A stretch of DNA of 58,368 nt from Nanobdellati archaeon (GTDB lineage Archaea; Nanobdellota; Nanobdellia; UBA10117), in contig JACOYC010000010.1 of assembly GCA_016182015.1 (NCBI GenBank), forward strand, positions 1-58,368, in the 5' to 3' direction. Position 1 is the stretch's first letter. Each line of letters starts with the position of its first letter. The translations under genes were made by a program, and so were the position numbers. Positions 3,272 to 58,368 of this stretch are shown here, in pieces. A model generated the notes under the pieces. The model was given only the letters and a program-made list of their open reading frames with translations, was not told the origin of the DNA and made no database searches.

Positions 3272-6200
3272 TTAAGTATTTTTATTCTGTTCTTTTTTGC
3301 GCCCAGCTGGCTCAGTGAAAAGCCAGTTGAATATTTTCCGCCTGAAGCCCTGCCAGTTTCTTTTGGTTTCTTTTTGCGCCTGCGGGGCTTGCCTGCCAAA
3401 ACTGACAGGATTCAATTTTGGCCAGCGGAATAATCTCCGCTTGGGTTTTGCGGCTTCTACTTCCTTTGCGTACTTCTGGTAGTATGCCTTCTTCTGATCC
3501 TCAATTCTACGGGTTAAGCTACTACTTAATTTAGATTTGTATCTGCGCGCGAAGCTTGCGGCGAAAAGAATTGCCAGCGCAGCTATGACAAACGCGTAGG
3601 CTGGCAAGCCTAATTTTTTTACCATTAACGCTGATTTTATCTTTGGCCCGATATTTTTTATGGCGCCAAAGTCCGGCATTTTTAATCCTGCGAAACCTGT
3701 CAGCGGGCTGGCAGAAGCGGCTGTCACGTTTGCAGTTTCATTAACTATAGCAGACTCTGCAGCGATTTCCGCCCCTGATTTTTTCTTACCTGCAACTGCG
3801 AAGTACGATAGGCCGGGCGAGCTTGCCTCAAATGTTGCATATTCCTGCGTTTGCGATATTAAATCAGTTGGCAATTCCTGCCATGAAGTTGTGTGGCGGT
3901 AAAGCCTTATCGAATTTTTGTTTATCAGGTTCAATTTTATCCACGACTGCGGGACTTTGAATTTTATTTTCGCATTCGATATTTTTGATGACTCTAAATT
4001 TTCAGCGCTCAGCGCAGAAAAAGCATATGTAACGCCGGGCGGATTGGGACTTTCAGGGTTGGCATCAAGCTTTTCTATTATTAGCTTGACATTTTCCGCG
4101 GAACCGCCCGCCGTAACAGAAAATTCTGTTACTGCGAAACCTGCTTTTGAAGTTGTTACTGCTATTGTATCACCTGCGGCTACCTTTAGAAAAAAGCTTT
4201 TGGCTGTGTTGTCATTTAGGCCGCCGCCGCCCGAAGATTCGCTTGCTGACGAACCTGAAGATGTGCCAGAGCTGCTGCTTGAGCTGCTGCTGGAACTGCT
4301 GCCGCCATTGCTTATTTTAAAATCGCTTGCTGACGAAGCCGCGCCTACAAGCTCGCCATCTGTTGCGTTTACTCTTAAGCGATATGTATCGCCATTATTA
4401 ACGCCTTTTGTATTCCAGTCATACCGCCCGTCGTTTGCCTCGCCGGAGGCCAGCTGCGCCCATGTACTTCCGGAATTATTTGAGTAGTAGATTGTTATTG
4501 TAAGCGTATCATCTTCCGGGTCTGTTGCATTCCAGGTTATTGATTTATCGCCGCTCCATGTTTCGCCGCCAACCGGAGCAGTTAAGTTGACTGTGGGATT
4601 TTCGTTTTTGTTATTTATTATAAATGCTGTATCTGATGTGTCGTTAATAACGCCTGTTCCATCTGTTGCGTTTACAAATATATTATAATTTCTCCCGTCG
4701 GCAATTGCCGAAGTATTAAATGTAATATTATACACGCTGCCAACCGCGGCTGTCGAATTGCCTATGAGTGTGTAGTTCGTGCCGTTAGTATACCAGAAGT
4801 ATACTATCAGTATATCGCCCTGGCCGTCTATATCTGTTACCGATGCGTTTATTACTATAGAATTTGACAGCTTAGTTGATGTGTTCGGATATATGACTGT
4901 GGCTAATGGCGCCGAATTTTGTATCGTTGTGTTGCTCGAGTTTACATTTGCGCCAAAGTCCAGCCCGTCGTTCGGCAGCACAGAACACATCCAAACCTGG
5001 TTTTTAACTGCATAAGATGCATTTATCAATGTGAGATTTTCAAAAGTGCTGTTGCGTGTTCCGTTCATGTACCAGCTTATCATTGTATTATTATTTATGT
5101 CACCATCTGTATCAGAAAATGTATAGTTGCAGTTCATGGTTGTGTTTGCCACCGGGCTTGCCGGCTGGATTGTTACATTTGAGGCTGACGGCTGCGTGTT
5201 GCTGAGATTGAATACAAATGCTGTTGAATTAAAATTGTCAAATATATCTGACGCGTAAATAGTTACGTTGGCCTGCCCGGCAGGCCAGCCAGTGGTATTA
5301 ATCTGGTAAAGATTATTGCTGCTGTTCTGCGATAGAGATGTATTTGTTCGGTTGTTTAAGGAATAAGTTGCTGTAAAAATTGCCGTGTCATCTGCAATTG
5401 TAACATTAATTGGCGCGCCGCGCGTTATGCCTGAGTTGTTGCCGGGCGCTACTGTCATGTTCGGGTATTTTGAATCAAATGTGGCAAGCACGCTTAAGAT
5501 GTTTATTCTGGAAAAGTTCAGGCCTGAAGATGCGTCGCTTATATTTACTCCGTTGTCTTTGAACAATTTTTCTGCTGCGGTTGAATTTGTTGATGCGCCA
5601 AATTTTGATTTATAGAACTGATAGAATAATGCAAATGCTGCAGCCGCATGCGGCGCGGACATTGATGTGCCTGACTCGACAGAGTAGTTGCCCGCCCATG
5701 CCGTTGAGTTGATGGCCACTCCAGGGGCAAGCAGGTCAGTTATGTTATTTCTGTTGTACGTGGCGGAATCACCTTTTGTCACTGCGCCTACCGCTGTCGT
5801 GTTTGTTATGCAGGCCGGCGATGCGATTGCAGTCGTGTTTCCGTCATTGCCTGTCGCGGCCAGCACTGTTATATTAACAGCAGTCGCGTTGTTTATCGCT
5901 TCTGCAAAAGTCGCGAAATCCGAATCGCAGAAATTTGTGTAAAGATTGTCTGTCCCGAAACTCATCGTTATAACTGATATATTATATGCCGAGGCGTTGC
6001 CGATGCACCACTTGACACCTGCAATCGCGTTTGCAGTCGAGCCTGTGCCTGCCGAATTCAAAACTTTAACAGCGGCTATGTTTGACCCGGGAGCGATTCC
6101 TGTAGCGCTACCGGACGCCGCAACTATGCCTGCCACGTGCGTGCCGTGCCCGTTGTCATCGTACGGATCTGCATCATCGTTCACAAAATCAAAGCCGATA

Positions 6201-6754
6201 ATAATTTTGCAGCCAGAGCCAAGGCAGCCGCCCAAATCTGCGTGTGTATAATTAACGCCGGAATCTAGCACGCAGACTGTCTGGCCTGCCCCCGTCAGGT
6301 TCAGGCCGTTAAGCTGCGCTGCGTGAACGCGGGTCGCGTTCATCTGTTTTTTAGTGTCATTAAGCATTGCCTTTATCTTATAATTATACTCTATGCGCTC
6401 TATTAAATCAGAATTTTCCAGCGAGGCAAGCTCCGCCGCAGAAATCTCTGCCGCAAATGAGCGTTCTATTATTGTGTTCGTCTTCAGATTTAAAGATTTT
6501 ACATTATCTTCAAAACTCAGTGATTCTGACTCTGCAGCCAAATCAGCTTTTTTTAATGTTATTATTACTGGGAGTTTTTCCTCTGCTTTTTCCGCGGTCG
6601 CGGATTGTATTTCTGCAATGCCACGTATAGTGTTATGGGTATTTTTAATTTTACTTATCTGTTCCGGCAGGGCGTTTTCTGCATGCGCAACGCTAATTAA
6701 AAACATTGCTAAAACTATGCACGATAAAAAGCAGATAACCAACGCTCTACTCAT
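3272..6754 (-). CDS. secreted S8 subtilisin-like serine protease with I9 propeptide, Ig-like repeats, poly-Ser linker, PGF-pre-PGF-like domain and C-terminal TM anchor
   Basis: Signal peptide present. Catalytic D/H/S motifs VLDSGVNYTHADLGG, HGTHVAGIVAA and GTSMSAPHAAAA. Very many N-x-S/T sequons. C-terminal TM followed by a basic tail. Confidence 0.9.
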   Translation of the reverse strand: MSRALVICFLSCIVLAMFLISVAHAENALPEQISKIKNTHNTIRGIAEIQSATAEKAEEKLPVIITLKKADLAAESESLSFEDNVKSLNLKTNTIIERSFAAEISAAELASLENSDLIERIEYNYKIKAMLNDTKKQMNATRVHAAQLNGLNLTGAGQTVCVLDSGVNYTHADLGGCLGSGCKIIIGFDFVNDDADPYDDNGHGTHVAGIVAASGSATGIAPGSNIAAVKVLNSAGTGSTANAIAGVKWCIGNASAYNISVITMSFGTDNLYTNFCDSDFATFAEAINNATAVNITVLAATGNDGNTTAIASPACITNTTAVGAVTKGDSATYNRNNITDLLAPGVAINSTAWAGNYSVESGTSMSAPHAAAAFALFYQFYKSKFGASTNSTAAEKLFKDNGVNISDASSGLNFSRINILSVLATFDSKYPNMTVAPGNNSGITRGAPINVTIADDTAIFTATYSLNNRTNTSLSQNSSNNLYQINTTGWPAGQANVTIYASDIFDNFNSTAFVFNLSNTQPSASNVTIQPASPVANTTMNCNYTFSDTDGDINNNTMISWYMNGTRNSTFENLTLINASYAVKNQVWMCSVLPNDGLDFGANVNSSNTTIQNSAPLATVIYPNTSTKLSNSIVINASVTDIDGQGDILIVYFWYTNGTNYTLIGNSTAAVGSVYNITFNTSAIADGRNYNIFVNATDGTGVINDTSDTAFIINNKNENPTVNLTAPVGGETWSGDKSITWNATDPEDDTLTITIYYSNNSGSTWAQLASGEANDGRYDWNTKGVNNGDTYRLRVNATDGELVGAASSASDFKISNGGSSSSSSSSSSSGTSSGSSASESSGGGGLNDNTAKSFFLKVAAGDTIAVTTSKAGFAVTEFSVTAGGSAENVKLIIEKLDANPESPNPPGVTYAFSALSAENLESSKISNAKIKFKVPQSWIKLNLINKNSIRLYRHTTSWQELPTDLISQTQEYATFEASSPGLSYFAVAGKKKSGAEIAAESAIVNETANVTAASASPLTGFAGLKMPDFGAIKNIGPKIKSALMVKKLGLPAYAFVIAALAILFAASFARRYKSKLSSSLTRRIEDQKKAYYQKYAKEVEAAKPKRRLFRWPKLNPVSFGRQAPQAQKETKRNWQGFRRKIFNWLFTEPAGRKKEQNKNT
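4787..4816. repeat. AGTATACT-type array inside the S8 protease CDS, 3 units at 11-bp period
   Basis: AGTATACC 4787, AGTATACT 4798, AGTATATC 4809. An 18-nt stretch is identical (as reverse complement) to 14606-14623. Confidence 0.7.
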
Positions 6755-11805: not shown

Positions 11806-13185
11806 ATGGCTGATGAAACCCAACTCACTGAAAAACCGAAAACAAAAAAATCTTTTCGGAAAATTATTGCTGCAGTTCTTATCGGCCTGCTGATATTATT
11901 TTTAATTGTGTTTGTCTACTCGCTTTCCGGCCAGCAGGCTGGCACGCAGCAGGAAGTGCAAAAAACAGACATTGAATTTGTGCCAAAAAACACCGGCGTG
12001 GGTGCAAAGGCTGAGAACATTTTGCCGGAGCCGCCGAATGCCGGCTCGAGATTCGGCTTTGTAAACGCCGGGCAGGACTTCATCGGGCTGGCAAAGTTTG
12101 GCGTTGGCTGGGACAGGCCGTATCCCGGGCCGTTCAACTGGCAGCAGATTCAGGACGGCAGCTACAACGCTGTTGACGAGTATGTAAAAAACGCACAGCA
12201 GCACGACTTTGCAACTGTCGCAATCGTATGGCCCTACTGGGATGTTGACCAGGATTTATGCCACGCTGAGGACCTGCCTGCTGTCAGATTCGGAAAATTC
12301 TTCGGCGAGCTTGCCAGCAAGCGCGGAAAGCCCTGCGGCCATGACGCATATAAAAATTTCCTGACGGGCTTGGTTGAAAGATATGATGGCGACGGAAAAG
12401 ATGATATGCCTGGCCTGCGCTACGGGATAAAACACTGGGAGATTGCATCGGAGCCTGAAATTCAGGACAGGCGCGACGGAATTGTGTTTTTCCAGGGCAA
12501 GCCAAAGGATTATATCGAAATGCTCCGCGAAACCTACGCTGCAATCAAGACAGCAGACCCCGGCGCAAAAGTGCTGAACGGCGGCGCGGCAACAGCGTCT
12601 GCAGAGCACCTTAGTTTCTGGGAAGAATTCCTGCGGCAGGGCGGCGGCAGGTATGTTGATATATTTAGTATGCATTGCCTTGAGTGCGACGAAAGCCTGG
12701 GCGTGGAGCCTTACGCAAAACTTCTAAAAAAATATGAGATGCAAACGCCAATCTGGGTGACTGATGTTTCCTATTTTGGAAATGATAACGAGCAGGCCAA
12801 GAATCTGTTCCGGGGCTATGTGACCGGATTTGGTTTTGGCGCCCAGAAAATTTTTTATGACAAATGGCAGATAAAAGCCGGCGGAAGGGAGGAGCTTGCC
12901 GCCCTGAAAACTTCAACGCAGGACAGGCTTGCGCTTAACGCCACGGATGCGATTATTAAAAAAATCGGCGGTTTCTGGAAAGTAGAAAAACTCGGGGACG
13001 GCCATTATCGTTTCTATCTTTCAGAGTCTGGCAGGGTGAGGGACGCGTTCCTCAAGGCATCCGAACTGCCTGCCGAACTGCAGGGCAACCTGAAGATGAC
13101 CGCGTATGACGGAACAGACACGATAAGGCATAATGTGCGCAACATAGATTCTGCCGCCGTGCCGGTGATTGTTGAAGCGATTTAG
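11806..13185 (+). CDS. membrane-anchored glycoside-hydrolase-like (clan GH-A-like) protein
   Basis: N-terminal TM helix. The HWEIASEPE segment resembles the WEIxNEP acid/base motif of TIM-barrel glycosidases; the function call is weak. Confidence 0.45.
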   Translation: MADETQLTEKPKTKKSFRKIIAAVLIGLLILFLIVFVYSLSGQQAGTQQEVQKTDIEFVPKNTGVGAKAENILPEPPNAGSRFGFVNAGQDFIGLAKFGVGWDRPYPGPFNWQQIQDGSYNAVDEYVKNAQQHDFATVAIVWPYWDVDQDLCHAEDLPAVRFGKFFGELASKRGKPCGHDAYKNFLTGLVERYDGDGKDDMPGLRYGIKHWEIASEPEIQDRRDGIVFFQGKPKDYIEMLRETYAAIKTADPGAKVLNGGAATASAEHLSFWEEFLRQGGGRYVDIFSMHCLECDESLGVEPYAKLLKKYEMQTPIWVTDVSYFGNDNEQAKNLFRGYVTGFGFGAQKIFYDKWQIKAGGREELAALKTSTQDRLALNATDAIIKKIGGFWKVEKLGDGHYRFYLSESGRVRDAFLKASELPAELQGNLKMTAYDGTDTIRHNVRNIDSAAVPVIVEAI

Positions 13186-13188
13186 TGC

Positions 13189-13229
13189 GGTATACTGCCA
13201 GTATACTTCTAGTATACTTTAAGTATACT
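13189..13229. repeat. AGTATACT palindrome array, 4 units at exact 11-bp period
   Basis: GTATACT starts at 13190, 13201, 13212 and 13223. A T5 run follows. Confidence 0.9.
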
Positions 13230-13290
13230 CTATTTTTAAAATTTTATATGCTCATGCGGGTAATTTATCTGGCGGCGGGAAAGATATATA

Positions 13291-13299
13291 TTTATATAA
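13291..13299 (+). promoter_or_regulatory. TATA-like box upstream of 13320..14561
   Basis: TTTATATAA is centred about 25 nt upstream of ATG 13320. Confidence 0.35.
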
Positions 13300-13319
13300 T
13301 ATGCCTGTTAGCTATAAAA

Positions 13320-14561
13320 ATGGTCAAATTTCAGTACGTCATACTTGGGATGATTTACGCAGGCCTGCTGCTCACCGCCACGCTGTTTATTACTTATTCA
13401 ACGCAGCACAGCACAGACACTGCTGCACGGTACGCCAAGGGCTTTTTGGAAGGCAAAAAAATAATTGCTGAGGAGCAAAGGGAATTTGAGGCTGCGCGGG
13501 AAAAGGAAAAAATTGTAGAGGAAATTCCGCCTGAGCCTGAGAAGCCGGTGTTCACATATGTGCCGCCCTCAGCCGCAAAAATAAATTATACAAAGGGCCT
13601 GATTTTCAACCCGCGGCAGAGGCAGGACTGGGCAGAGGTTATCGCCAGGGCAAAGGGGCTGAATGCAAACCTTGTGGTGATTGAAGTCGAACTGGAAAAG
13701 GGCGCGGATGACAATCCGGAAATTTACTGGTATCCGCAGTGGCAGGGCAGCTGGCAGGAGGAGACAAAAAAAATCGTGAACGAAGCGCACAAGAATGGCC
13801 TGCAGACAGAGCTGCGCCTTGGGACAAGGGTAGAGACTGACGTAAGGGACGGGCCAATTACAGACAATGAAACTGATTATTACAGGAATGCCACGCTGAG
13901 ATTTTTCACAAACATCTCAAAATTCGCGAATGAGTATAAAATGGACCGGCTGACCATTTACAGCGAAATCGACAACCTGAAAAACTGGGGGCACAGGACT
14001 GAATTTATAAGCCTTGTTTTGCAGGATACAAAAAACGAAATTAAAAAACATTATCGCGGAAAAATAGGCGCCGGTTTTTCTTCAGTTGTCCTGACCGACA
14101 GGAAGCTGGACTTTGACATTTCTGGCTATGATTATATATTATTTAGTGCATACGCGACTGACTACAACACAGACTTTGGCTCTTATGAAAACAGGGTTTA
14201 TGAAACATTCAAAGCCGCAAAAATTATGGCAGGCCACCGCCTCATAACTGACATAACTGCGGGCCAGCTCGGCGTTTACGACAAAAACGATACAAGGTAT
14301 GATTATGTCGGCGTAATTGTCAGCGAAAAAGATGAGGCAGGCATGTGGGACAGCTTTTTCTCGAGATTCGGCGGCGAGTTCAGCGGCTTCACGATTGGCT
14401 GCGGCACTTACGCCTACTCAGTCTGCGGGGAAAAATCAGAGGCGGTTGTAAAAGAGTGGTTCGGAAAACTTCCTATCCCTCCGCCAGCCACGGTATCGCT
14501 GGCCAGCAATCTCTCAAAGCCATACAACGCCACGCCAGGGGAGAGGCCGAAGTATTTGTAA
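13320..14561 (+). CDS. membrane-anchored hypothetical protein (possible TIM-barrel hydrolase-like)
   Basis: Start moved to ATG 13320 (MVKFQYVILG..., TM helix), preceded by a TATA-like box. The upstream part of ORF 13185.. is read-through of the AGTATACT array. Confidence 0.5.
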   Translation: MVKFQYVILGMIYAGLLLTATLFITYSTQHSTDTAARYAKGFLEGKKIIAEEQREFEAAREKEKIVEEIPPEPEKPVFTYVPPSAAKINYTKGLIFNPRQRQDWAEVIARAKGLNANLVVIEVELEKGADDNPEIYWYPQWQGSWQEETKKIVNEAHKNGLQTELRLGTRVETDVRDGPITDNETDYYRNATLRFFTNISKFANEYKMDRLTIYSEIDNLKNWGHRTEFISLVLQDTKNEIKKHYRGKIGAGFSSVVLTDRKLDFDISGYDYILFSAYATDYNTDFGSYENRVYETFKAAKIMAGHRLITDITAGQLGVYDKNDTRYDYVGVIVSEKDEAGMWDSFFSRFGGEFSGFTIGCGTYAYSVCGEKSEAVVKEWFGKLPIPPPATVSLASNLSKPYNATPGERPKYL

Positions 14562-14583
14562 GTTGCGCGGCAAGCATGCCATT

Positions 14584-14635
14584 GGTATGCCATCGATATA
14601 CCCCCAGTATACTTCTGGTATACCTCCGGTATACT
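14584..14635. repeat. AGTATACT-type palindrome array, 5 units at exact 11-bp period
   Basis: GGTATGCC 14584, GATATACC 14595, AGTATACT 14606, GGTATACC 14617, GGTATACT 14628. Confidence 0.85.
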
Positions 14636-15176
14636 ACGCAATCGCCCTGCCGGCCAGCCCGATAAGGAAAATGCCAAGCCAGTTGGCTATGAATGAGAGC
14701 ACAAGAACCTTCCTGTCAGGATATTTTAAAATGCTGAGAATGCTTACCCCAATCTCATCCGGAAGCGGCGACAGGATTATAAAAAAGGCGACAACCGGCC
14801 CCAGCTTTCTTATAATATGCAGCGTATGCTTCTTCAGCGCGAGCCTGCCATTTAACCGCACCACGTTCTTGCCAATAGTTTTGCCAAAAATCTTGAACAA
14901 AATATAATCTGAAAACATCGCGCCGAACGCCCCGAGTGTTGAAAAAATGAAAATATTTTGTGTTGGGGAGAGCAAGAGCAGAATCGCGGCGGACGGCCCG
15001 ACAGTAAAAACATCTGAGTAAAATGAGCCGGCAACCAAGGTTCCGATGTGGCCGTACTCGCCCAAGTTATTTAGTATGTTTTTAACAAACTCTGAAGTCA
15101 TGATAAGGCTGGCAATTATCAGGCTTGACGCCATCAAGCCAACCTTGTACCTAAGTTCGTGGTCGCGTATGGCCAT
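14634..15176 (-). CDS. multi-pass membrane protein (DedA/VTT-like, weak)
   Basis: 180 aa with 4-5 hydrophobic helices and an SPLPDE segment. Confidence 0.5.
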   Translation of the reverse strand: MAIRDHELRYKVGLMASSLIIASLIMTSEFVKNILNNLGEYGHIGTLVAGSFYSDVFTVGPSAAILLLLSPTQNIFIFSTLGAFGAMFSDYILFKIFGKTIGKNVVRLNGRLALKKHTLHIIRKLGPVVAFFIILSPLPDEIGVSILSILKYPDRKVLVLSFIANWLGIFLIGLAGRAIA

Positions 15177-25907: not shown

Positions 25908-25914
25908 TTTGCGC

Positions 25915-25944
25915 AGTATACTGACAGTATACTAGTAGTATACT
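25915..25944. repeat. AGTATACT palindrome array, 3 perfect units at 11-bp period
   Basis: Units at 25915, 25926 and 25937. The array fills the E1beta-E2 intercistronic spacer. Confidence 0.9.
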
Positions 25945-29768: not shown

Positions 29769-30731
29769 ATGGCCAAGACTTATGACATTCTAATTATCGG
29801 TGCAGGCCCTGCCGGCCTGACTGCGGCAATCTATGGTGTCCGCGCGGGAAGAAGTGTTTTAGTGGTTGGCGGAAAAACTCCTGGCGGGCAGTTAATGCTG
29901 ACCACAGATGTTGAGGACTACCCTGGATTTGTTGATGCTGTGCAGGGGCCTGAGCTTGTGCAAAGGATGCGCGGGCAGGCCTCGCGTTTGGGCGCAGAGT
30001 TCTTCGATGACAATGTTACAAAAGTTGGTTTTAAAAAATCCCCGTTCACACTTGAAACCGACGAGAAAAAAAAGTTTTCTGCAAAGTCTGTTATAATTGC
30101 GGTCGGCTCCGCGTACAAGTGGCTCGGCATTCCATCAGAATTAAAGTTCAAGGGCAACGGCATCTCAACGTGCGCGGTCTGCGATGGATATTTCTTCAAA
30201 AATAAAGATGTTGTTGTAATCGGCGGCGGCGACACCGCGATGCGCGAGGCGCTGTTTCTGTCAAAGATTTGTAAAACTGTTACAGTGATTCACCGCCGCG
30301 ACGTGCTGCGCGCGCAGGCTGTTTTGCAGGAACGCGCGAAGGCAACAAAAAATATCAAATGGATTTGGAATTCCGAAGTGCTGGAATTTTTAGGCGATAA
30401 AAAATTATCTGGGATTAAAATAAAAAACACCAAAACCCACCAGACTTCAACTTTGAAAATTGATGGCGCGTTTGTCGCGATCGGCCATGAGCCTTCAACT
30501 GGATTTTTGAAGGGCCAGCTCGAGCTCGATTCAAAGGGATATATTACTATGAGAAGTCAGACTGAAACCTCTGTGCCTGGCGTTTTTGCTGCGGGTGATG
30601 TTAAGGATTTCCGCTACCAGCAAGCTGTTACCGCGGCCGGCTTTGGCTGTATGGCTGCGATGGACGCGGATAACTACTTGCACGGGTTTAGGGCAGTCAG
30701 TGAAGCAGCCAGAAAAAAGCAAAAGAAGTAA
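29769..30731 (+). CDS. trxB: thioredoxin-disulfide reductase
   Basis: GAGPAGLTAAIY FAD motif, CAVCDG redox centre, GGGDTA NADPH motif and a C-terminal GDV...QAVTAAG block. Confidence 0.95.
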   Translation: MAKTYDILIIGAGPAGLTAAIYGVRAGRSVLVVGGKTPGGQLMLTTDVEDYPGFVDAVQGPELVQRMRGQASRLGAEFFDDNVTKVGFKKSPFTLETDEKKKFSAKSVIIAVGSAYKWLGIPSELKFKGNGISTCAVCDGYFFKNKDVVVIGGGDTAMREALFLSKICKTVTVIHRRDVLRAQAVLQERAKATKNIKWIWNSEVLEFLGDKKLSGIKIKNTKTHQTSTLKIDGAFVAIGHEPSTGFLKGQLELDSKGYITMRSQTETSVPGVFAAGDVKDFRYQQAVTAAGFGCMAAMDADNYLHGFRAVSEAARKKQKK

Positions 30732-30760
30732 GTATGCTGGAAGTATACTCACGGCATACT
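30731..30760. repeat. AGTATACT-type array, 3 units at 11-bp period
   Basis: AGTATGCT 30731, AGTATACT 30742, GGCATACT 30753. Units 1 and 3 are mutually complementary. Confidence 0.85.
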
Positions 30761-30777
30761 TGCTACAAACTACTAAA

Positions 30778-31827: not shown

Positions 31828-32100
31828 ATGGCAGCTAAAAAATACGCGCTGAAAAGTATAGGAATAATCTCGCTGGCAAATTTTTACGCAATCTTTATGG
31901 GAATAATTTATTTTTTCGTTGGATTTATTTATGCCGCGCTAAATCTCGCTAACTTGGGTTTTTTGTGGATTATAATTTTGCCGCTGGCAGGCCTGCTGTT
32001 TGGCTTTTTGATGGGCATCATAACTGCATTTGTTTTCAACCTGATTGCCGGCTGGCTTGGCGGGATTGAGTTTGAGGCCGAGCGCAGAAGATTTAAATAG
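31828..32100 (+). CDS. small membrane protein (3 TM)
   Basis: 90 aa and strongly hydrophobic. Starts 1 nt after the previous stop. Confidence 0.5.
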   Translation: MAAKKYALKSIGIISLANFYAIFMGIIYFFVGFIYAALNLANLGFLWIIILPLAGLLFGFLMGIITAFVFNLIAGWLGGIEFEAERRRFK

Positions 32101-32662: not shown

Positions 32663-33142
32663 TTATCTGCCTTGAAATGTGGCCGCACTTACAACTGAAA
32701 AAATATCATCGTGCTTATTTCTAAAACTTTTAAATACTTTTATATTCATCGTTCCGTTCGGGTAATTTGTTTCTTCTTGGATCATTATTAATTCAGTCGC
32801 AACTAAAATAAATTCCACAGAATACTGACCGTATTTATTTAGCTCTTCAAATTGCGCCAAATCTTTTGCGTTGTAAACTTGTAATGAGGGCGGGAATTTA
32901 TTTTCCGGCTTCAATTTCTTCATCATAGCTATTAGATAATCAACAAGCTTCAAAGTTAATTCTTTGTTTCTGCTTAGCTTCATGTACAAATCAATAATGA
33001 TGTGGATGTGTTTAGGTGTTCGCACTCTTTTGTCCGGCTCTTGATAGTGAACGCGGAAATCAAACGGTGATTCTTTCTTTTTGCCTTTTGAAACCAAAAT
33101 CTTTACGCCTTCTTTGGTTGTGTGCATCAATACATGATCCAT
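32663..33142 (-). CDS. hypothetical protein (candidate restriction endonuclease partner; function unproven)
   Basis: 159-aa ORF divergent from the RHH-methyltransferase pair. I could not identify a nuclease motif. Confidence 0.45.
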   Translation of the reverse strand: MDHVLMHTTKEGVKILVSKGKKKESPFDFRVHYQEPDKRVRTPKHIHIIIDLYMKLSRNKELTLKLVDYLIAMMKKLKPENKFPPSLQVYNAKDLAQFEELNKYGQYSVEFILVATELIMIQEETNYPNGTMNIKVFKSFRNKHDDIFSVVSAATFQGR

Positions 33143-33204: not shown

Positions 33205-33342
33205 ATGTCAAAAGTGCCATTGAATATAACTGTTGATAGTGAATTGTTAGTTAAATTTAGAGAACTTTGCAAGAAGTTAGATATAAAAATCTCAACAAAG
33301 ATAAATACCTTGATTAAAGAGTGGCTTGAAAGAAATGGTTAA
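33205..33342 (+). CDS. ribbon-helix-helix (CopG-like) small DNA-binding protein
   Basis: Hand-translated 45 aa: MSKVPLNITVDSELLVKFRELCKKLDIKISTKINTLIKEWLERNG (strand-helix-helix pattern). Its stop overlaps the methyltransferase ATG. Confidence 0.5.
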   Translation: MSKVPLNITVDSELLVKFRELCKKLDIKISTKINTLIKEWLERNG

Positions 33343-34141
33343 AACTAAACACAAAATAATCATCGGCGATTGTTTGGAAAAATTAAAAAATATTCCAGCA
33401 GATAGCGTAGATTTAGTTTTTGCCGATCCACCCTACAACATGTCAAAGAAGCAAGGCCTTGGCTGGAAATACAGCAAGCACGTAACCATGCAGGAAAATT
33501 GGGATATGTTTTCCAAAGATGAATTTTTTAGTTTTAATTTACGATGGATTGCGGAATGCCTGCGCGTGCTGAAGCATGGCGGGAGCTTATGGGTTTGCGG
33601 TTCGTTCCATAACATTTATCAAATTGGATTTATTTTGCAAAATTTCTTCACCGACATAAAAATAAACAATAGTGTTGTTTGGTTTAAGCCAAACGCCCAG
33701 CCAAACATAACTTGCAGGATGTTTACAGAAAGCACGGAGCATTTAATCTGGGCATCTAAAAATGGAATTGGCAAGAAGTGGAAATTTAATTACACAGATA
33801 CAAAAAATCTAATCTCTGATGAAATAAATCCAAAAGGAAAGCAAACGAGAAATGTGTGGAGCATTGCATTAACTCCAAGAAGCGAAAAATGGGCAGGCGA
33901 ACACCCAACACAGAAGCCAGTTGAGTTGCTGCGCAGAGTTCTACTGGCCTGCACAGACGAAGGCGATACTGTGCTTGATCCATTTTTAGGCTCCGGTACA
34001 ACATCATTCGTAGCAAAAACGTTTGGCAGACATTCGATTGGGATTGAAAAAGAGGCAAAGTATTTGCCAATTATTCAGAAAAGACTGAGTCCGGCACAGA
34101 AGAGAATTGGGGAAGAAGCGGAGATTGAGATAATAAGATAA
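33335..34141 (+). CDS. DNA methyltransferase, beta-class (N6-adenine or N4-cytosine)
   Basis: Motif IV VFADPPYN is N-terminal and motif I VLDPFLGSGTT is C-terminal, which is the beta permutation. Confidence 0.85.
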   Translation: MVKTKHKIIIGDCLEKLKNIPADSVDLVFADPPYNMSKKQGLGWKYSKHVTMQENWDMFSKDEFFSFNLRWIAECLRVLKHGGSLWVCGSFHNIYQIGFILQNFFTDIKINNSVVWFKPNAQPNITCRMFTESTEHLIWASKNGIGKKWKFNYTDTKNLISDEINPKGKQTRNVWSIALTPRSEKWAGEHPTQKPVELLRRVLLACTDEGDTVLDPFLGSGTTSFVAKTFGRHSIGIEKEAKYLPIIQKRLSPAQKRIGEEAEIEIIR

Positions 34142-34326
34142 TGGAACAGCCATTCGATTTGTCAAATATCAGCTTACCGATTGCAACATTACTCGGAGCT
34201 GCATGGCTAATTAGCAAAGGAAATAATTTGGGTTGGATAATTTTAGGTTTTGGTTTCTTTTGGTGGATATTAGATCAAATAATAAAGTGGTTGCGGATGG
34301 AATATTACTATAGACATCGTATATAA
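34141..34326 (+). CDS. small 2-TM membrane protein
   Basis: 61 aa. Its ATG overlaps the methyltransferase stop (TAATG). Confidence 0.45.
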   Translation: MEQPFDLSNISLPIATLLGAAWLISKGNNLGWIILGFGFFWWILDQIIKWLRMEYYYRHRI

Positions 34327-34521
34327 TTGTACCAGCTATGCCCTCGATTTTCTTCCGCTCCACCTCTGCGAAGGGCAGACCACTATTTTTAATTATTTTA
34401 GTCGAGATTTGCAATTATAAACCGTCCCAAACCAATTTGAACCGAAAGGAAGCCCTAGCTGCCCCCGCTCGCCAACGGTCTCGTAGCTAAATTATATATT
34501 AGTGCAGTTTTACTAATTGCC

Positions 34522-35025
34522 ATGGAAACACGTGAGCCGAGTAATATATTTGAGCTGGCCATCCGCATTCTAAAGCAAAGGCGGTATGCCCTCGTGACAT
34601 TAGCGGGGTTTGCCGGCTTCTTTGTTCTCTACTCTTTCATCTCGGGCTTCTGGCAGATCCCGGGCATCAGCCTTCGATTTGTGCGGGACACGCCGATAAC
34701 TGCGTATGATGTACTTTACATTGTGCTGGTCGCGGTTTTTGCTGGCCTGCTTATCACGCTGCTAAAGTACAAAGCAGATGAAGTTAGACTCAAAACTGAG
34801 AAGGGAGTTGCGGGTGTCGGTGCGCTCATCGCCGGAATTTTCAGCGCGTCCTGCCCGGTCTGCCAGGGTGTTGCGATCGCTGCATTCGGCACAACCTTCT
34901 TCTCTGTTCCGTTCGGCCCGCTCGTGCCTTACATCAGCGTGCTGAAGATTGTCGGGCTTGCCACGCTCGTGCTTGCTATATATTTAACTTTAGATAGTAT
35001 TTACACAAAAACATGTAGGATATAG
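34522..35025 (+). CDS. 4-TM membrane protein with intramembrane CPVC motif
   Basis: IFSASCPVCQGVAIAAFG lies within a hydrophobic helix. Confidence 0.55.
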   Translation: METREPSNIFELAIRILKQRRYALVTLAGFAGFFVLYSFISGFWQIPGISLRFVRDTPITAYDVLYIVLVAVFAGLLITLLKYKADEVRLKTEKGVAGVGALIAGIFSASCPVCQGVAIAAFGTTFFSVPFGPLVPYISVLKIVGLATLVLAIYLTLDSIYTKTCRI

Positions 35026-35031
35026 GCTGCT

Positions 35032-35802
35032 ATGAAAAACATTTTAAACCCTATGCTGTCTCTGCTCGTGATGGACGATTCAGATAATAAACAACCAGAA
35101 CAGCCACGCCCGCATACAACTGCAAAACACAAGGGTAATCTTGTTTCGTTTTTATATAATAATAATGTTGCCTTTGGATTGATTATTGTTCTTGTGGCGC
35201 TGCTTGCAGTCAATGGATTTCTTATTCAAACTATCGGTGGGCAGGGCGGCTCTGTAACACTCAGCGCAGACCTGCACTATGATGCAAAAACCACGCTCAA
35301 GCCGATGCCGCTTGCCACGGGTGAGCAGCCGAGAATCTCCGGTTACAGGAGCATAGTCAAGCCGCTGCCAACAATCAGCGAACTGCCAATTACTGCATCC
35401 ACTGGAGACGTTGTAAAGGATTTAATAAATAATATAATTCCGCGCGGGACGCCATGGTACGGCTCCGAAGCCGGTGTTTCATTTGATGACCCGCTCACTG
35501 CACAAAAGTTATGGGCTAAGGCACAGGCAATCCAGCTCTCCGCGGATGAACAGAAACGCTGGGGCAGGATTGTAAACTCATTCACATGCGACTACTGCTG
35601 CGGCTCGCCGCAGAGGCCAACAATAATAACACACTGCGGCTGTGCGCACTCCAAGGCGGCACAGGGTATGGCAAAATGGTTCATCAAAAACTACGGAGAT
35701 AAATATTCTGACGAGCAGATTTACGGGGAGCTGGCCAGATGGTATGCGCTGTGGTATCCGGGGCCGACTGTGAAGAGAATAGTTCAGGAGCTGCAGGCAT
35801 GA
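35032..35802 (+). CDS. membrane-anchored protein with CDYCCG...HCGCAH Cys cluster
   Basis: One TM helix, then an extracytoplasmic domain containing FTCDYCCGSPQRPTIITHCGCAHS. Confidence 0.55.
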   Translation: MKNILNPMLSLLVMDDSDNKQPEQPRPHTTAKHKGNLVSFLYNNNVAFGLIIVLVALLAVNGFLIQTIGGQGGSVTLSADLHYDAKTTLKPMPLATGEQPRISGYRSIVKPLPTISELPITASTGDVVKDLINNIIPRGTPWYGSEAGVSFDDPLTAQKLWAKAQAIQLSADEQKRWGRIVNSFTCDYCCGSPQRPTIITHCGCAHSKAAQGMAKWFIKNYGDKYSDEQIYGELARWYALWYPGPTVKRIVQELQA

Positions 35803-40680: not shown

Positions 40681-40824
40681 GAAAAAATCCGCAAAACTCC
40701 GCCCTTTAGGGCGCGGGATACGCGGATTTTTCCATTCAGCCAAAATTCGTTTTGGCTGACCAGTCGAACTTTGTTCGAACTGTTCCTCAAAATCGCGGTT
40801 AAGCGAGCAGCGATTTTGAGTTAT
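40681..40824 (-). repeat. mosaic hairpin element, copy D (inverted relative to E/F)
   Basis: Its reverse complement shares ATAACTCAAAATCGCTGCTCGC, GTTCGAACAAAGTTCGACTGGTCAGCCAAAA..TTTTGGCTGAATGGAAAAAT with copy E. The last 4 nt overlap the ccdA stop codon. Confidence 0.85.
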
Positions 40825-41528
40825 ATGAATGTTATTGTTCCGTTTGCTATTAGTATGAGCAGCCAACCTAAAAAGATGAGCAGCACGCCTGACGCGAGGC
40901 GCATCAGCGGCCTGTTACGGTGTTTCCATTTTTTAATTACATGAATTTTTGTGCCAAAATAAGTAAGCATTAATATTGCTATCAGCGGCAATACAAAAAT
41001 AAAGTTGTATAATACCAGAAGGAGGAATGCTGTTAAGTCAAACTGCTGCGAGAGCAGCGCGATTATTGCGAGATATGGCGCGCCGGTACAAGGCAGTTCG
41101 ACGCCGGCCACGAATGCGCCGAGAAATAAAATGCCTGGCAGGGTGATTTTTTTTGTATAATCTGAAATTTTCTTTGACATCTCGGGCGGAATTGAGAGTG
41201 TGAAGCCGCGCCCATACCAAAAATAGTCTTTGATTTCTACCAGGCCTGCAAACACAATTATGGAAGCAACAGCAATCGCCAAATACTCTGACAAATACAG
41301 CGGAATGCGGCTGAAAAAATACACTAAGCCGAGGCCGGCCGCCAGGTATGTTGCGAAAACTGCAGATATATATAAAAATCCGTATGTCAGGAGCTTTTTC
41401 CTTACATGGGAAGCTGTCAAGATCGATACTAATAAAATCAGCACGCCGATTGCGCACGGATTTATTGAGTCAACCGCTGCAGTTATTATTACTGCGCCAA
41501 GCGTTGGAATGGATGCAGCAACTGCCAT
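40821..41528 (-). CDS. ccdA: CcdA/DsbD-family thiol-disulfide electron transporter
   Basis: Six TM helices. Conserved Cys in DSINPCAIGVL and VELPCTGAPYL. Confidence 0.8.
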   Translation of the reverse strand: MAVAASIPTLGAVIITAAVDSINPCAIGVLILLVSILTASHVRKKLLTYGFLYISAVFATYLAAGLGLVYFFSRIPLYLSEYLAIAVASIIVFAGLVEIKDYFWYGRGFTLSIPPEMSKKISDYTKKITLPGILFLGAFVAGVELPCTGAPYLAIIALLSQQFDLTAFLLLVLYNFIFVLPLIAILMLTYFGTKIHVIKKWKHRNRPLMRLASGVLLIFLGWLLILIANGTITFI

Positions 41529-43624: not shown

Positions 43625-44881
43625 ATGCAGAAACTAAAGAGAAGCCTTGGCCTGTTTGAAACCACTTTTTATGGTGTTGGCGTGATAGTGGGCGCAGGCA
43701 TTTACGCACTGATAGGAAAGGCAGCCGGCCTGTCAGGCAACGCAGTCTGGCTCTCATTTATTTTCGGCGCAGTCATCGCTGCCTTTACCGGGCTAAGCTA
43801 TGCGGAGCTAAGCTCGATGTTCCCAAAGGCCGGCGGTGAATATGTTTACGCAGAAAAAGCGTTTAATCGCAGGCTGGCCTTCCTGCTTGGCTGGCTTATT
43901 GTCGTTGGCGGAGTCATAGCCGCAGCAACAATTTCTCTCGGGTTTGCAGGCTACTTCTCGGCCTTGTTTGGCACGCCATTAATACCAATAGCAATCGCAA
44001 TCATTCTCGTTTTATCATTGATAAATTTCTGGGGCATAAAAGAATCCGCCATCGCAAATATTATTGCAACTGTCGTCGAGGTTGGCGGCTTAATAATAAT
44101 ATTAGTTCTCGGCTTAAAATATCTGGGAAGAGTAAATTATTTTGAGTTCACTCCGCAGCTCGGCTTTCCTGGCACTTTGAGCGCGGCCGCACTTATATTT
44201 TTTGCATATCTTGGGTTTGAAGATATCGTGCGCCTGTCAGAAGAGACCAAAAATCCTAAGAAGATAATTCCGCAGGCACTTATACTTTCGGTTATAATTT
44301 CAACTATTTTATATATAGCAGTAGCTGTTGCGGCTGTCTCTGTTGTCGGCTGGCATGCCCTTTCGCAATCAGATGCTCCGCTGGCATTAGTTGCGCAAAC
44401 CGCCCTTGGCCAGAAAGCATTTTTCATTCTGGCAGTAGTAGCCTTGTTCTCTACATTTAATACAATTCTAGTAACATTAATCGCAACATCGCGAATGCTT
44501 TACGGGATGTCTGAGGAGCACGGCCTGCCAAAAATATTTTGTGCAGTCGACAAAAAGCGTTACACGCCGTGGTTTTCAATTATCATTACTTGTTTAGCAG
44601 CCATTACGTTTACATTGCTTGGAAAGATAGAGCTTGTGGCTGGCCTGACAGACTTCGCGCTTTTTGTGACGTTTGCTCTTGTTAATGCGGCGCTCATCTG
44701 GCTCAGGCATAAGCTGCCGAATGCGCCGCGGCCGTTCAGAACCTGGGCCCCGCTAGCCTGGCTCGGCATAATATTCAGCATCGCGATGCTTCTGTACTTA
44801 GATAAAATAGTGATTGCTGGCGGTGTCGCGATGGTGGTGGCTGGCCTGCTGGTGTATGAAGCAATTAAAAAAAGAATGTAA
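43625..44881 (+). CDS. APC-family amino acid permease
   Basis: 418 aa with about 12 TM helices and an N-terminal GVGVIVGAGIYALIG motif. Confidence 0.85.
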   Translation: MQKLKRSLGLFETTFYGVGVIVGAGIYALIGKAAGLSGNAVWLSFIFGAVIAAFTGLSYAELSSMFPKAGGEYVYAEKAFNRRLAFLLGWLIVVGGVIAAATISLGFAGYFSALFGTPLIPIAIAIILVLSLINFWGIKESAIANIIATVVEVGGLIIILVLGLKYLGRVNYFEFTPQLGFPGTLSAAALIFFAYLGFEDIVRLSEETKNPKKIIPQALILSVIISTILYIAVAVAAVSVVGWHALSQSDAPLALVAQTALGQKAFFILAVVALFSTFNTILVTLIATSRMLYGMSEEHGLPKIFCAVDKKRYTPWFSIIITCLAAITFTLLGKIELVAGLTDFALFVTFALVNAALIWLRHKLPNAPRPFRTWAPLAWLGIIFSIAMLLYLDKIVIAGGVAMVVAGLLVYEAIKKRM

Positions 44882-44887
44882 TCAAAC

Positions 44888-45078
44888 ATAACTCAAAATC
44901 GCTGCTCGCACCTTATCCACGGACTAATGTCGAAAAATATTTTAATTTTTCGAGCACCTCGAAAATGCTTACGCATTTTCGTTGAGTTCGAACAAAGTTC
45001 GACTGGTCAGCCAAAACTCATTTTGGCTGAATGGAAAAATGCGGCTTAAAAGCCGGGGTTTTAGACCCGCATTTTTCC
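44888..45078 (+). repeat. mosaic hairpin element, copy E (five nested or serial hairpins)
   Basis: Bases 44888-44986 are identical to 58270-58368. The remainder aligns with the reverse complement of copy D. Confidence 0.9.
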
Positions 45079-45116: not shown

Positions 45117-47183
45117 ATGGCTACTGATCCAGTATGCGGAATGAATGTAAATGAAAAAACCTCAACAATAACAAAAGTTTCTGATGGTATAAAATATTAT
45201 TTCTGCTCATCTAATTGTCTGGTTACTTTTGAAGCACCAGAAAGAGAGTTTAAGAATTTAAAAACCACTTTGATTATTTCTGGTGTTTTGACTGTAATTG
45301 TTCTGGCGCTGGCGTTTGTCCCACACCAGCACTTTTTGTATGAGCACTACGTCCTGCTCGCCCTAGCAACAGTTGTGCAGTTTTACGGCGGCTGGCGATA
45401 CTACCGCGGCGCGTTTGATGCTGCAAAAGCAAAGACTGCAAACATGGACACGCTAATTGCGATCGGCACTAGCGCAGCTTGGGGCTACAGCGCGGCAGCG
45501 GTTTTCCTGCCAAATGTTTTAACTGGTGGATTATATTTTGATACATCAACTGCAATTATCACATTAATTTTGCTTGGAAAATTCTTTGAAGAGATTGCTA
45601 AGGGGCGCGCATCGCTTGCGCTGAAAGAACTTTTGGACCTTGCGCCGAAAACTGCAATCGTGATACGGGATGGACAAGACGTTGAGATTCCAATTTCTGA
45701 AATTAAAGTTGGGGATGTCTGCATAATCAAACCGGGGGAGAAAATTCCCGCAGATGGAATGATTATGTCTGGCCACTCATCTATTGATGAATCCCTCGTG
45801 ACTGGAGAGTCGCTGCCTGTTTCAAAATCAATAGGTGATCATGTGATAGGAAGCACGATAAACAAGTCTGGCCTGCTAAAAATCAAAGCAACAAAGGTCG
45901 GCAAGGACACTGTTCTTGCGCAGATTATCGATCTTGTGAGTAAGGCGCAGCTTTCAAAAGTGCCAGTACAAAAACTAGCGGATCAAATTTCATCTTACTT
46001 TGTTCCTGTTGTGATAATGATTGCGATTCTTTCTAGCGCCATTTGGATTTATGCCGGACAGGATTATATTTTTGCGATGACTATCGCTATCGCTGTCCTG
46101 ATAATTGCCTGCCCGTGTGCCCTTGGCTTGGCCACGCCGACCGCGCTTCTGCTTGGAACGAGCAAAGGCGCAGAGAACGGAATTTTAATCAGAAATGGCG
46201 AGGCGCTGGAACGTTCATCAAAAGTTGACACTGTTGTTTTTGATAAAACAGGAACCTTGACTGAGGGCAAGCCCAAGGTGACTGGCCTGCATTTTCTGCA
46301 GATTGAGAAGCCACTGTTCCTGAAGTACGCTGCAATTGCGGAGAAAGGCTCAGAGCACCCGCTGGCAAGAGCGATTGTTGATTATGCAAACGTCCGTGTA
46401 GAAAAAATAAAAGAAGCCGCAGCATATGAAACAATTCCCGGAAAAGGCATAAAAGCAAAATACCTGAACGGCACAATTCTTGTTGGCAACCGTGCTTTAA
46501 TGAACGACGAAAACATTTTGCTCGGCGATCACAGCATCGGCATACATAACCTTGAACTCCGGGGCGAGACTATAGTGATTGTTGCGCACAACAAAAAATT
46601 CATTGGCGCGATCTCAATTGCGGATGTTGTAAAACAAAATGCAAAAAAAGCTGTTGACTTACTTGGCCAAAAAGGAATAGAAGTTTATATGATTACTGGA
46701 GACAACGAGCGCGTGGCTGAGCACATTGCTGGCCAGCTTGGGATCACAAAAATATTCGCGCGTGTTCTTCCGCAGGACAAGGAGAAGAAAGTTGCTTTGT
46801 TGCAGAAAGAAGGAAAGATTGTCGCTGCAGTCGGTGACGGAATAAACGACGCGCCGATGCTTGCAAAGGCAGATGTTGGGATTGCGCTTGGCTCTGGCAC
46901 AGATGTTGCCAAGGAAACCGGCGGAATTGTTTTGATTAAGAATGATCCGCTGGATGTTGTTAAATCATTGAAGCTTGGCAGATATTCTATTGGTAAAATT
47001 AAACAAAATCTTTTCTGGGCGTTCGCCTATAACGTAGCCGCAATCCCGATCGCGGCCGGCATCTTGTATCCGTTCTTCGGTTTCCTGCTATCGCCGACAA
47101 TCGCAGCGTTTGCGATGGCGTTTAGTTCTGTGACTGTGGTGGGGAATTCGCTGTTGATGAAAAGGTTTGAGCTAAATTCTTAA
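45117..47183 (+). CDS. copA: copper-translocating P1B-type ATPase with N-terminal TRASH/YHS domain
   Basis: DPVCGMNV...YYFCSSNC (TRASH), TGES, CPC (IIACPCALG), DKTGTLT and GDGINDAP. Confidence 0.95.
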
Positions 47184-48176: not shown

Positions 48177-48457
48177 GCCAATTCTACGAGGGAAAAGGCT
48201 TAAATACTTGATTACATAAGCAGTAAAATAAACTTCAAGGAGGTGTGTAATGGCAAGAAAGGCTTTTGGGGGAATGACGGTGTCATTTGCAAAGTGCGAC
48301 TGCGCTGGCAGCGACATTTTTGGCTCCGGCGCGATTGCGCCCAGCGAGATGACAAAGAGGCTCTGGAAACACGTCAAGAACGCGCACGGCGGACACATGA
48401 TGCGAAAATAGAACTTTTAATGTCCAAACTATTTGTTTAATTTTTTTAAAATTTGTT

Positions 48458-57642: not shown

Positions 57643-58200
57643 TTACTGCTGCCCAAGATATCTGGCAAGCTCGCCGCCCAGTTGGGTAAGAACATAATTG
57701 TACTTCTTTCGGCCGTCTTCGACCAACACTTCTTCCCGCACAATGCCTTCACCAAGCTGTCTCAAGTAAAAACCCGTTATATTATATCTGCCAAACCGCA
57801 TCTCTTTTGAAATGAATGTCGGGTTGATGCGCCTGTATTGCATTACTTTGTGAATCTCTGCAAGCTTGAGCACGAGCCTTGTTAAAACAGAACGCCTTGA
57901 CTCGAAAACCGCCCAGCCGGCAGCACGGAGGGCGTAGCCAAAGCCTGCCTGCTCTACGCAATTTTTAGAATTCCTGTCCGTGCCCAAGGTGCGTAATAAT
58001 TCGTTAAGCTCTGACTCATGTATGCCGGCCTCTTCAGCCTTATCAACAAGCGCATACATGGGCATGGTTACATCACCAACTTTATTCGCATGAGTGCGCA
58101 TAATTCCCAAAACAATCCTTTCGCGCGGATTTGGCCGCTCGTTCAGCTGCTCCGGCCAGCCATCCACGATTGCCTGCAAATCTCTGACAATTTGTGCCAT
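57643..58200 (-). CDS. hypothetical protein (possible C-terminal wHTH)
   Basis: 185-aa ORF. Confidence 0.5.
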   Translation of the reverse strand: MAQIVRDLQAIVDGWPEQLNERPNPRERIVLGIMRTHANKVGDVTMPMYALVDKAEEAGIHESELNELLRTLGTDRNSKNCVEQAGFGYALRAAGWAVFESRRSVLTRLVLKLAEIHKVMQYRRINPTFISKEMRFGRYNITGFYLRQLGEGIVREEVLVEDGRKKYNYVLTQLGGELARYLGQQ

Positions 58201-58269: not shown

Positions 58270-58368
58270 ATAACTCAAAATCGCTGCTCGCACCTTATCC
58301 ACGGACTAATGTCGAAAAATATTTTAATTTTTCGAGCACCTCGAAAATGCTTACGCATTTTCGTTGAG
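58270..58368 (+). repeat. mosaic hairpin element, copy F (truncated by window end)
   Basis: 99/99 nt identical to 44888-44986. Confidence 0.9.

Follow-up and report, generated by a model that had tools for sequence, protein, structure and literature searches.

Small palindromic repeat families are well studied in bacteria, whereas, to our knowledge, they have hardly been studied in archaea, and we know of no such study in the DPANN archaea, whose genomes are tiny and compact. The REP/BIME repeats (REPIN-RAYT systems) are short, lineage-specific palindromic repeats of bacterial hosts, mostly extragenic and often clustered, which lie at gene 3' ends and between the cistrons of operons, vary in presence among close relatives, and form stem-loops with G.U pairs that favor the transcript strand. 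The REP/BIME unit is an imperfect palindrome of 20-40 nt that occurs in alternating orientation; copies exceed 100 per genome, and the partner is RAYT, an IS200/IS605-like Y1 transposase. An excerpt of one published account gives a GTAG or CGTC tetranucleotide at one end as the defining tag of REP (PMC3733652).

Other described systems share individual properties with the repeats analyzed here. Rickettsia palindromic elements (RPE) and MITE-like repeats are small palindromic repeats that occur inside protein genes and leave the reading frame intact, the RPE being insertions of 100-150 bp that add a peptide segment. Tandem short units that are cooperatively bound are found in parC of plasmid R1, which is bound by ParR (11-bp iterons), and in the met-boxes of MetJ (8-bp palindromes repeated 2-5 times at a period of 8 bp, not 11); both are conserved and lie in promoter regions beside their cognate genes. 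The DUS and USS of Neisseria and Pasteurellaceae are short motifs spread by molecular drive, which form hairpin pairs downstream of genes, also occur within genes, where they reshape codons, and are mostly singletons at about one per kb.

Five phased arrays of an 8-bp palindrome in an archaeal chromosome

The window analyzed here, a stretch of 58,368 nucleotides of contig JACOYC010000010.1 (GCA_016182015.1), is chromosomal DNA of a DPANN archaeon (kingdom Nanobdellati). The best match of its E1-beta protein (96% identity) is to a protein of the groundwater MAG GCA_016204275.1, followed by proteins of Aenigmarchaeota and Woesearchaeota; exact look-ups of the window proteins matched no other contig. 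The coding density is 90%, with a median gap of 32 nt, and the genes are mostly housekeeping ones (RNase P p30, ribosomal protein L15e, SUF system, IMPDH, GatD/E, P-type ATPase). The majority of the genes are leaderless and have their TATA box (TTTAAATA or TTTATATA) at -29..-22 relative to the ATG. Five copies of an oriented repeat element are present:

Array 1, 13183..13229, plus strand: leader TAGTGC and four units, GGTATACT gcc AGTATACT tct AGTATACT tta AGTATACT, then cta and a T5 run (13233-13237)
Array 2, 14563..14635, plus strand: leader TTGCGC (14563-14568) and six units from 14573, AGCATGCC att GGTATGCC atc GATATACC ccc AGTATACT tct GGTATACC tcc GGTATACT
Array 3, 25909..25944, plus strand: leader TTGCGC and three perfect units, AGTATACT gac AGTATACT agt AGTATACT
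Array 4, 30731..30766, minus strand, degenerate: leader GTAGCA and AGTATGCC gtg AGTATACT tcc AGCATACT
Array 5, 4787..4822, minus strand, within the S8 peptidase gene 3272..6754 (minus strand, 1160 aa): on the sense strand, CAGGGC GATATACT gat AGTATACT tct GGTATACT

The element consists of a leader of 6 nt (TWGYGC) and, after it, 3-6 tandem 8-bp palindromes (RGTATACY) with 3-nt spacers. Four of the five copies in these 58 kb are extragenic, and arrays are found both sense and antisense to neighboring genes, which encode glycosidase-like membrane proteins, a DedA protein, 2-oxoacid dehydrogenase components, and thioredoxin reductase (TrxR) and thioredoxin (Trx). The closest relative has two copies and one eroded remnant on its fully read 31-kb contig.

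The TAG of the array 1 leader is the stop codon of 11806..13185, and the TATA box of the next gene, TTTATATA at -29..-22 of the ATG at 13320, is separate from the array. Array 2 occupies the gap between the convergent 13320..14561 and DedA/VTT gene 14634..15176: its leader begins 1 nt past the stop of the former, and the TAG stop of the latter (14634-14636, minus strand) shares bases with its last unit. Array 3, antisense to a minus-strand 2-oxoacid dehydrogenase operon, makes up the entire 35-nt spacer from the E1-beta stop (TAG, overlapping the last unit) to the E2 start (25907). Array 4 lies between the TrxR stop (TAA, 30729-30731) and the Trx start (30778). Array 5 encodes the peptide Q-G-D-I-L-I-V-Y-F-W-Y-T in an Ig-like domain of the S8 peptidase.

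A preliminary description of this DNA, made from the sequence alone, had reported four arrays, always abutting a stop codon. Its coordinates hold for all four, including the GTATAC unit starts of array 1 (13190, 13201, 13212 and 13223, with three of four units being the perfect AGTATACT) and the position of that array just past the stop codon (13183-13185), ahead of the T5 run. Array 2 was correctly placed at 14584-14635 but cut short, given that its six units start at 14573 with AGCATGCC, and the copy at 4787-4816 inside the S8 peptidase gene was missed; abutment to a stop codon is true of the four extragenic arrays and not of array 5.

Judged by location, hairpins, lineage specificity and variable presence, the arrays are closest to REP/BIME; we place them among the small palindromic repeats in general, not within REP itself. 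Stem-loops are present in the predicted folds of the arrays, as in REP/BIME. However, each array is built from a perfect, self-complementary 8-mer, and the units run head-to-tail with a constant period of 11 nt instead of in the inverted pairs of REPINs or the alternating layout of BIMEs. GTAG is contained only in the array 4 leader (GTAGCA). Unlike the bacterial REP/BIME, the arrays belong to a DPANN archaeon and include one copy in frame inside a gene; they are known here from the 58-kb window and parts of a relative, and no RAYT was found among the window genes scanned, with 58 kb and about 39 kb of the relative read. The remaining systems differ more. In contrast to RPE, array 5 adds no residues and instead recodes an existing beta-strand, and neither terminal inverted repeats nor target-site duplications, the hallmarks of MITEs, were found for the arrays. 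Whereas parC and met-box arrays are conserved and promoter-associated, those in the window are dispersed, located at 3' ends, recent and decaying, and no ParA, ParM, ParR or Rep gene, as in parC-type centromeres or iterons, is present in the window. Unlike DUS/USS, array units occur as singles at chance level and otherwise only in blocks of at least three, and no uptake machinery is implicated.

Several features of the surrounding DNA were recorded independently of the arrays. Neither of the two N-terminally anchored proteins encoded around arrays 1 and 2 (11806-14561) matched a Pfam or NCBIfam entry; this region has a G+C content of about 50%, compared with about 44% nearby, is missing from the syntenic contig of the relative, and may be acquired DNA. 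A segment of about 20 kb (~11750-32100) is inverted relative to the closest relative contig (L001/L454, JACQKZ010000008.1), in which the gene of a 1083-aa PGF-pre-PGF protein is joined to the equivalent of 31828..32100; the inversion breakpoints do not coincide with arrays. At 53787-54804 (minus strand), the overlapping genes of a HEPN domain protein and an HTH-containing nucleotidyltransferase make up a typical toxin-antitoxin pair of the HEPN-MNT type. For the 408-aa protein encoded at 47172-48398 (minus strand), Pfam returned nothing and NCBIfam only a weak match resembling an IS3 transposase (E 2e-4); the protein might be a degenerate integrase.

Motif statistics and the 11-bp phase

In the window, AGTATACT occurs 10 times against a chance expectation of 0.36, a number reached in none of 100 shuffles, which bears out the earlier tally by eye of about ten. 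Only the occurrence at 42937 stands alone; there, adjacent Val and Tyr codons of a zinc-finger gene spell the motif, which chance can account for. GTATAC occurs 17 times (5.5 expected). When up to one mismatch was allowed, cores at period 11 formed 13 pairs and 8 triples, compared with 0-1 pairs at each of the other periods from 7 to 15; six phased triples were observed versus none in 300 Markov simulations. Single near-units outside the arrays appear at about the chance rate, so the motif exists only as blocks of at least three units.

The sequence GTATAC is a known type II recognition site (BstZ17I), and a link of the arrays to DNA methylation had been suggested. The CcrM/HinfI-like family of methyltransferases methylates GANTC, and restriction sites are normally avoided in genomes, not clustered. 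A DNA methyltransferase gene is present in the window (33335..34141), but its product, the only DNA methyltransferase encoded there, is CcrM/HinfI-like (NCBIfam CcrM, 4.9e-69; PDB 6pbd, 6.7e-54), no recognizable endonuclease adjoins its gene, and GTATAC outside the arrays is neither avoided nor enriched (4 occurrences, around the chance level). A GTATAC-specific restriction-modification or methylation system thus has next to no credibility as the explanation of the arrays, and the suggested link is not supported.

The methyltransferase is a short N6-adenine enzyme of 268 aa without the C-terminal domain, and its gene lies amid small genes that could not be annotated (32663..33142 and 34141..35802). 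Since the equivalent position in the 86% relative, beside the DUF7343 regulator, is taken by a DsbA-like gene, the methyltransferase region may be an inserted island.

The strict period fits another reading, already raised in the preliminary description, which we retain as a tentative rival. Under this reading, the arrays would be phased double-stranded DNA sites, with each 8-bp dyad binding a dimer of a lineage-specific protein (ribbon-helix-helix or HTH), and one unit per helical turn would align the dimers on one face as cooperative filaments that mark gene ends or organize the chromosome in a centromere- or nucleoid-like manner. The period is strictly 11 bp in every array, with spacers of never 2 or 4 nt, and the cores are conserved while the spacers vary freely, unit positions 4, 5 and 7 being invariant in 28 units. 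Against it, no partition, Orc1/Cdc6 or obvious cognate gene was found in the window, and the arrays are located at 3' ends or between genes that converge, instead of at promoters. For the latter reason, we also rejected the possibility that the arrays represent sites for TrmB, although the TrmB palindrome, TACT-N3-AGTA, spans adjacent units.

A different palindrome, CTGGCCAG, mostly followed by C, occurs 9 times in the window (10723, 14499, 19733, 21209, 35731, 42606, 46729, 47995 and 53621), 11.6 times the expected number, and always within coding regions. It is enriched 21-27-fold in relatives as well (L001, L454 and L002), including a relative that lacks AGTATACT arrays.

Common descent and growth in 11-nt steps

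Copies were oriented by their spacers before comparison. The leader TTGCGC is common to arrays 2 and 3, TAGTGC of array 1 and CAGGGC of array 5 are variants along the same lines, and the others are GTAGCA (array 4) and ATTTCA. The spacer tct, between AGTATACT and an RGTATACY unit, is common to arrays 1, 2 and 5; the spacers gcc and yct recur in array 1 and in the L040 array, which lies on a different contig of the relative; arrays 2 and 5 both have the odd GATATAC as their first unit; and the variant GCA-AGYATGCC is found at the 5' end of arrays 2 and 4. Arrays 5 and 1 match at 30 of 35 bases, leader included. Within array 2, two sets of adjacent 11-mers, AGCATGCCatt/GGTATGCCatc and AGTATACTtct/GGTATACCtcc, are tandem duplicates that differ only by transitions, which points to growth by slippage in whole 11-nt units, so that the 11-nt period is kept without a helical argument. 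These alignments show the arrays to be related by descent and to change in length in whole 11-nt steps.

The duplication in array 2 would also be expected if each array had originated independently, as a minisatellite formed by in-place slippage of an 11-nt unit, neither mobile nor functional. Tandem 11-nt repeats with any hexamer are common in public DNA, and an 11-nt duplication unrelated to the arrays is found at the TrxR/Trx junction of the relative. Nevertheless, this origin is improbable, considering that the same 8-mer recurs at five loci in 58 kb and in L040, that leader and spacers are common to several loci, that spacers within an array mostly differ, so the units are not fresh duplications, and that the 36 bp at the E1-beta/E2 junction were gained in one piece (see below). 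The common non-palindromic leader and spacers likewise point to copying rather than to independent selection of protein-binding sites. The spacers are far more divergent than the cores, transversions included; plain neutral descent would not produce this pattern, which suggests a constraint acting on the cores, and that constraint could equally be protein recognition.

Recent insertion and decay

Comparison with relatives allowed us to examine individual junctions in the presence and absence of an array. At the E1-beta/E2 junction of L002 and L003 (E1-beta 86% identical), stop and start overlap as TAATG, whereas the window and L001 (96%) have 36 extra bp, which are array 3 (alignment A1). In L149 (91%), the E1-beta stop directly abuts the start of a different gene, and in L150 (81%), a short ordinary spacer follows E1-beta; neither has an array. 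The empty site reads CCATT followed directly by AGTAACTC, as opposed to CCATT, the 36 bp, and AATAAT in the window, and comparison of the filled and empty sites revealed no target-site duplication. At the TrxR/Trx junction, the genes overlap in L002, three degenerate units are present in the window, and only cacGCATACT remains of array 4 in L001. Conservation of the arrays at the junctions of relatives is accordingly uneven: array 3 is retained in L001 and missing from L002, L003, L149 and L150, and array 4 is eroded in L001 and absent from L002.

Given that array 3 was gained as a whole block and array 4 eroded in L001, arrays arrive as blocks and then decay, and the loss of array 4 in the relative means that any function there is dispensable. 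The junction alignments show that copies were inserted recently, exactly at gene junctions and 3' ends of a compact chromosome. Such recent insertions, absent in relatives with 81-91% E1-beta identity and in one case eroded in the closest relative, argue against phased protein-binding sites. The preliminary description had overlooked two points, namely, that the arrays are recent insertions related by descent and that one copy is intragenic.

The TrxR/Trx junction of the closest relative also contains, at L454 3195-3216, a perfect 11-nt tandem duplication (two copies of AACAAGTAAAA) that includes an AAGTAA Lys-stop motif. Its location is equivalent to that of array 4, and it shows that 11-nt units have slipped at this junction.

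The replacement of overlapping stop and start codons by the insertions implies that the downstream genes need a new start, and the arrays could thus be conceived as expression elements for the downstream gene, either TATA-like internal promoters (for leaderless or short-leader E2 and Trx) or translational re-initiation spacers. Indeed, most genes here are leaderless with a TATA box at -29..-22, and units lie at -37..-30, -26..-19 and -15..-8 upstream of E2 and at -36..-29 and -25..-18 upstream of Trx. However, array 2 and the L040 array lie between convergent genes, with no downstream gene to serve, gene 13320, downstream of array 1, has a canonical TATA box of its own, and AGTATACT is unlike the local TATA consensus. 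We consider a role of this type very improbable.

The coding copy

Array 5 encodes DILIVYFWYTN, which can be aligned gap-free with DIDIVYFYYTN, DIQVVWFYYSN and DIKQVYFYFRN of orthologs with 36-43% identity that were retrieved in a full-length S8 peptidase search; an in-frame, RPE-like insertion was rejected because there is no indel relative to the orthologs. The closest relative (L454) carries array 5 too, with changes only in one spacer and at unit position 8. A distant ortholog (L455) encodes the strand as GATATTGACATTGTTTATTTCTACTACACA, with 18 of 30 matches and with GATAT and TTCT already in place. In the window, the codons GTA-TAC-TTC-TGG-TAT-AC of this strand naturally set two cores 11 nt apart.

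Array 5 has three core mismatches, the minimum possible for its peptide (p=8e-4 given the peptide and codon usage), whereas the best reachable for an ancestral-like peptide is five; thus, the replacements of D by L and of Y by W also bring the sequence closer to the motif. A pre-similar coding segment may have been overwritten by an array, or, alternatively, the family may have been founded by this strand. Phased binding would likewise bias the codons of an intragenic copy in favor of the motif, as genuine chromosomal binding sites such as parS or matS do inside genes. A bolder interpretation, which we consider rather doubtful, combines these leads: the arrays would be either a phased platform for a lineage-specific dimeric nucleic-acid-binding protein that marks gene ends, or descendants of the coding strand VYFWYT as the progenitor of the extragenic family. 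If the platform version were true, there would be one 8-bp dyad per helical turn, or per A-form turn of an interrupted RNA helix, and the pressure toward the motif would be strong enough to recode a conserved beta-strand of a secreted protease.

Predicted hairpins and possible constraint on base pairing

The arrays are predicted to fold into nested, interrupted hairpins, with energies from -9.1 to -23.4 kcal/mol:

Array 1: -17.4 kcal/mol, z -4.3 (-4.25); units 1 and 4 and units 2 and 3 pair, nested around 3x3 internal loops
Array 2: -21.1 kcal/mol on the plus strand (z -2.9) and -23.4 kcal/mol on the minus strand (z -2.4)
Array 3: -9.1 kcal/mol, z not significant
Array 4: -20.6 kcal/mol, z -5.6, a 13-bp stem on the sense strand

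Across 22 independent units, the deviations from the AGTATACT consensus comprise 20 transitions and no transversions, compared with 1301 transitions and 764 transversions in the genome background relative to the relative, a transition fraction of 0.63, which yields p ~1e-4. In the nested pairing, the sense strand has seven G.U pairs and two mismatches, and the antisense strand the reverse. Array 4 has a compensatory G-C pair, formed where unit 1 changed from A to G and unit 3 from T to C, and G.U pairs as well. The transition-only divergence, the G.U bias and the compensatory pair fit a constraint on base pairing, but the numbers are small, with about eight copies; the G.U bias and the single compensatory pair are weak, and a strand-specific (transcription-linked) A-to-G mutation bias or DNA-level quasi-palindrome correction could mimic the signals. 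Transition-only divergence that includes core positions 2, 3 and 6 would be unexpected for base-specific readout by a protein. Conversely, the spacer is exactly 3 nt long in each of about 20 cases, a precision that hairpins would not require.

The proposal that neighboring units pair into RNA hairpins is thus supported in part, by the folds, the 20:0 transitions, the 7:2 G.U bias and the compensatory pair in array 4. Its extension to a terminator role does not generalize: a T5 run follows only array 1, 3 nt past the last unit, and none is found at arrays 2-4. A scan for bacterial-type intrinsic terminators flagged no array, although a bacterial consensus is uninformative for an archaeon, and Rfam 15 produced no match anywhere in the window at the gathering threshold. 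Because elements occur both sense and antisense to flanking genes, there is no orientation-specific RNA role.

Searches outside the lineage

Three successive GTATAC-N5 units were detected at more than 116 loci of species-representative genomes from many phyla. In viral-contig controls, however, period 11 gave 80 loci, periods 10 and 12 gave 58 and 45, respectively, and GATATC at period 11 gave 120 or more. As control patterns were equally numerous, these loci are generic short tandem repeats, and we dropped the notion of a widespread cross-phylum GTATAC system. A metagenome scan for three perfect AGTATACT units found 29 loci, none related to the window, a looser viral scan for arrays was non-specific, and a literature search for AGTATACT returned only primers and unrelated operators.

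Two unrelated repeats emerged from these scans. In nine metagenome contigs, cccttgcaggaatgcaGTATACtttaaGTATACttttaGTATACttattatgtactttcc...gaaGTATACttc recurs and looks like the end of a mobile element with putative phased binding sites. Many copies of a ~75-bp element with GTATAC units, in which the 5-nt spacers are mutually complementary (tgcct/aggca and acggc/gccgt) and the flanks are caaattt, are present in 11 rumen Prevotella MAGs; this is a separate multi-copy palindromic repeat family.

Origin, spread and significance of the arrays

Taken together, the arrays are best explained, with a probability somewhat above even, as a REP-like, hairpin-forming family of mobile repeats that is lineage-specific and possibly forms stem-loops in mRNA 3' ends. 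Spread would proceed by copying templated on homology or microhomology, through template switching or short-patch conversion, without a cut-and-paste transposase. We favor templated copying because the E1-beta/E2 target already held the unit-like AGTAACT, because stop codons TAG/TAA with a following TA supply an AGTA half-unit, and because there is no target-site duplication and the coding copy, if it overwrote a pre-similar segment, did so without an indel. A Pfam/NCBIfam scan of the window genes revealed no transposase, RAYT or HUH gene, nor was one found in the loci of the relative (about 39 kb), so the spreading mechanism is one that we purely infer. The strict 11-nt period would be inherited from the founder and kept by slippage, with no helical-phase requirement, and the surviving copies would lie at 3' ends since, in a compact genome, the only neutral sites are just past stop codons. 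Any action would be that of bacterial REP, that is, stem-loops in the 3' UTR or between cistrons, with protection of the 3' end, pausing or termination (array 1 with its T5 run) as candidate roles. Among the readings proposed at the outset, hairpins have gained some support, methylation has not, and phased protein binding is kept as a less likely rival.

A second, unrelated repeat of about 156 nt with several hairpins is found in the window at 44888-45043, at 40723-40824 (inverted and shorter) and at 58270-58368 (contig end). Identity between two copies is 100% over 99 nt, and the inverted one is missing 75 nt from its middle. The stops of 43625..44881 and 40821..41528 are each closely followed by the start of a copy, and the third lies upstream of 57643..58200 and runs into the contig end. 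This repeat could be a MITE-like element or a structured RNA. Because it too lies just 3' of genes, gene-end hairpin elements seem to be a habit of this genome.

The observation of the arrays is solid and the coding copy is unusual, while the mechanism and function given above are proposals drawn from genome comparison. The family is young, with empty sites, fresh copies and decaying copies that can be compared, and so offers a handle on the origin and spread of palindromic repeats without a visible transposase. As the coding copy illustrates, a protein-coding strand can be taken over by a repeat, or give rise to one, while its length stays the same. Should the hairpins shape the 3' ends of mRNAs, they would provide a rare example of structure-based 3'-end elements in archaea, in which termination is generally attributed to U-tracts.
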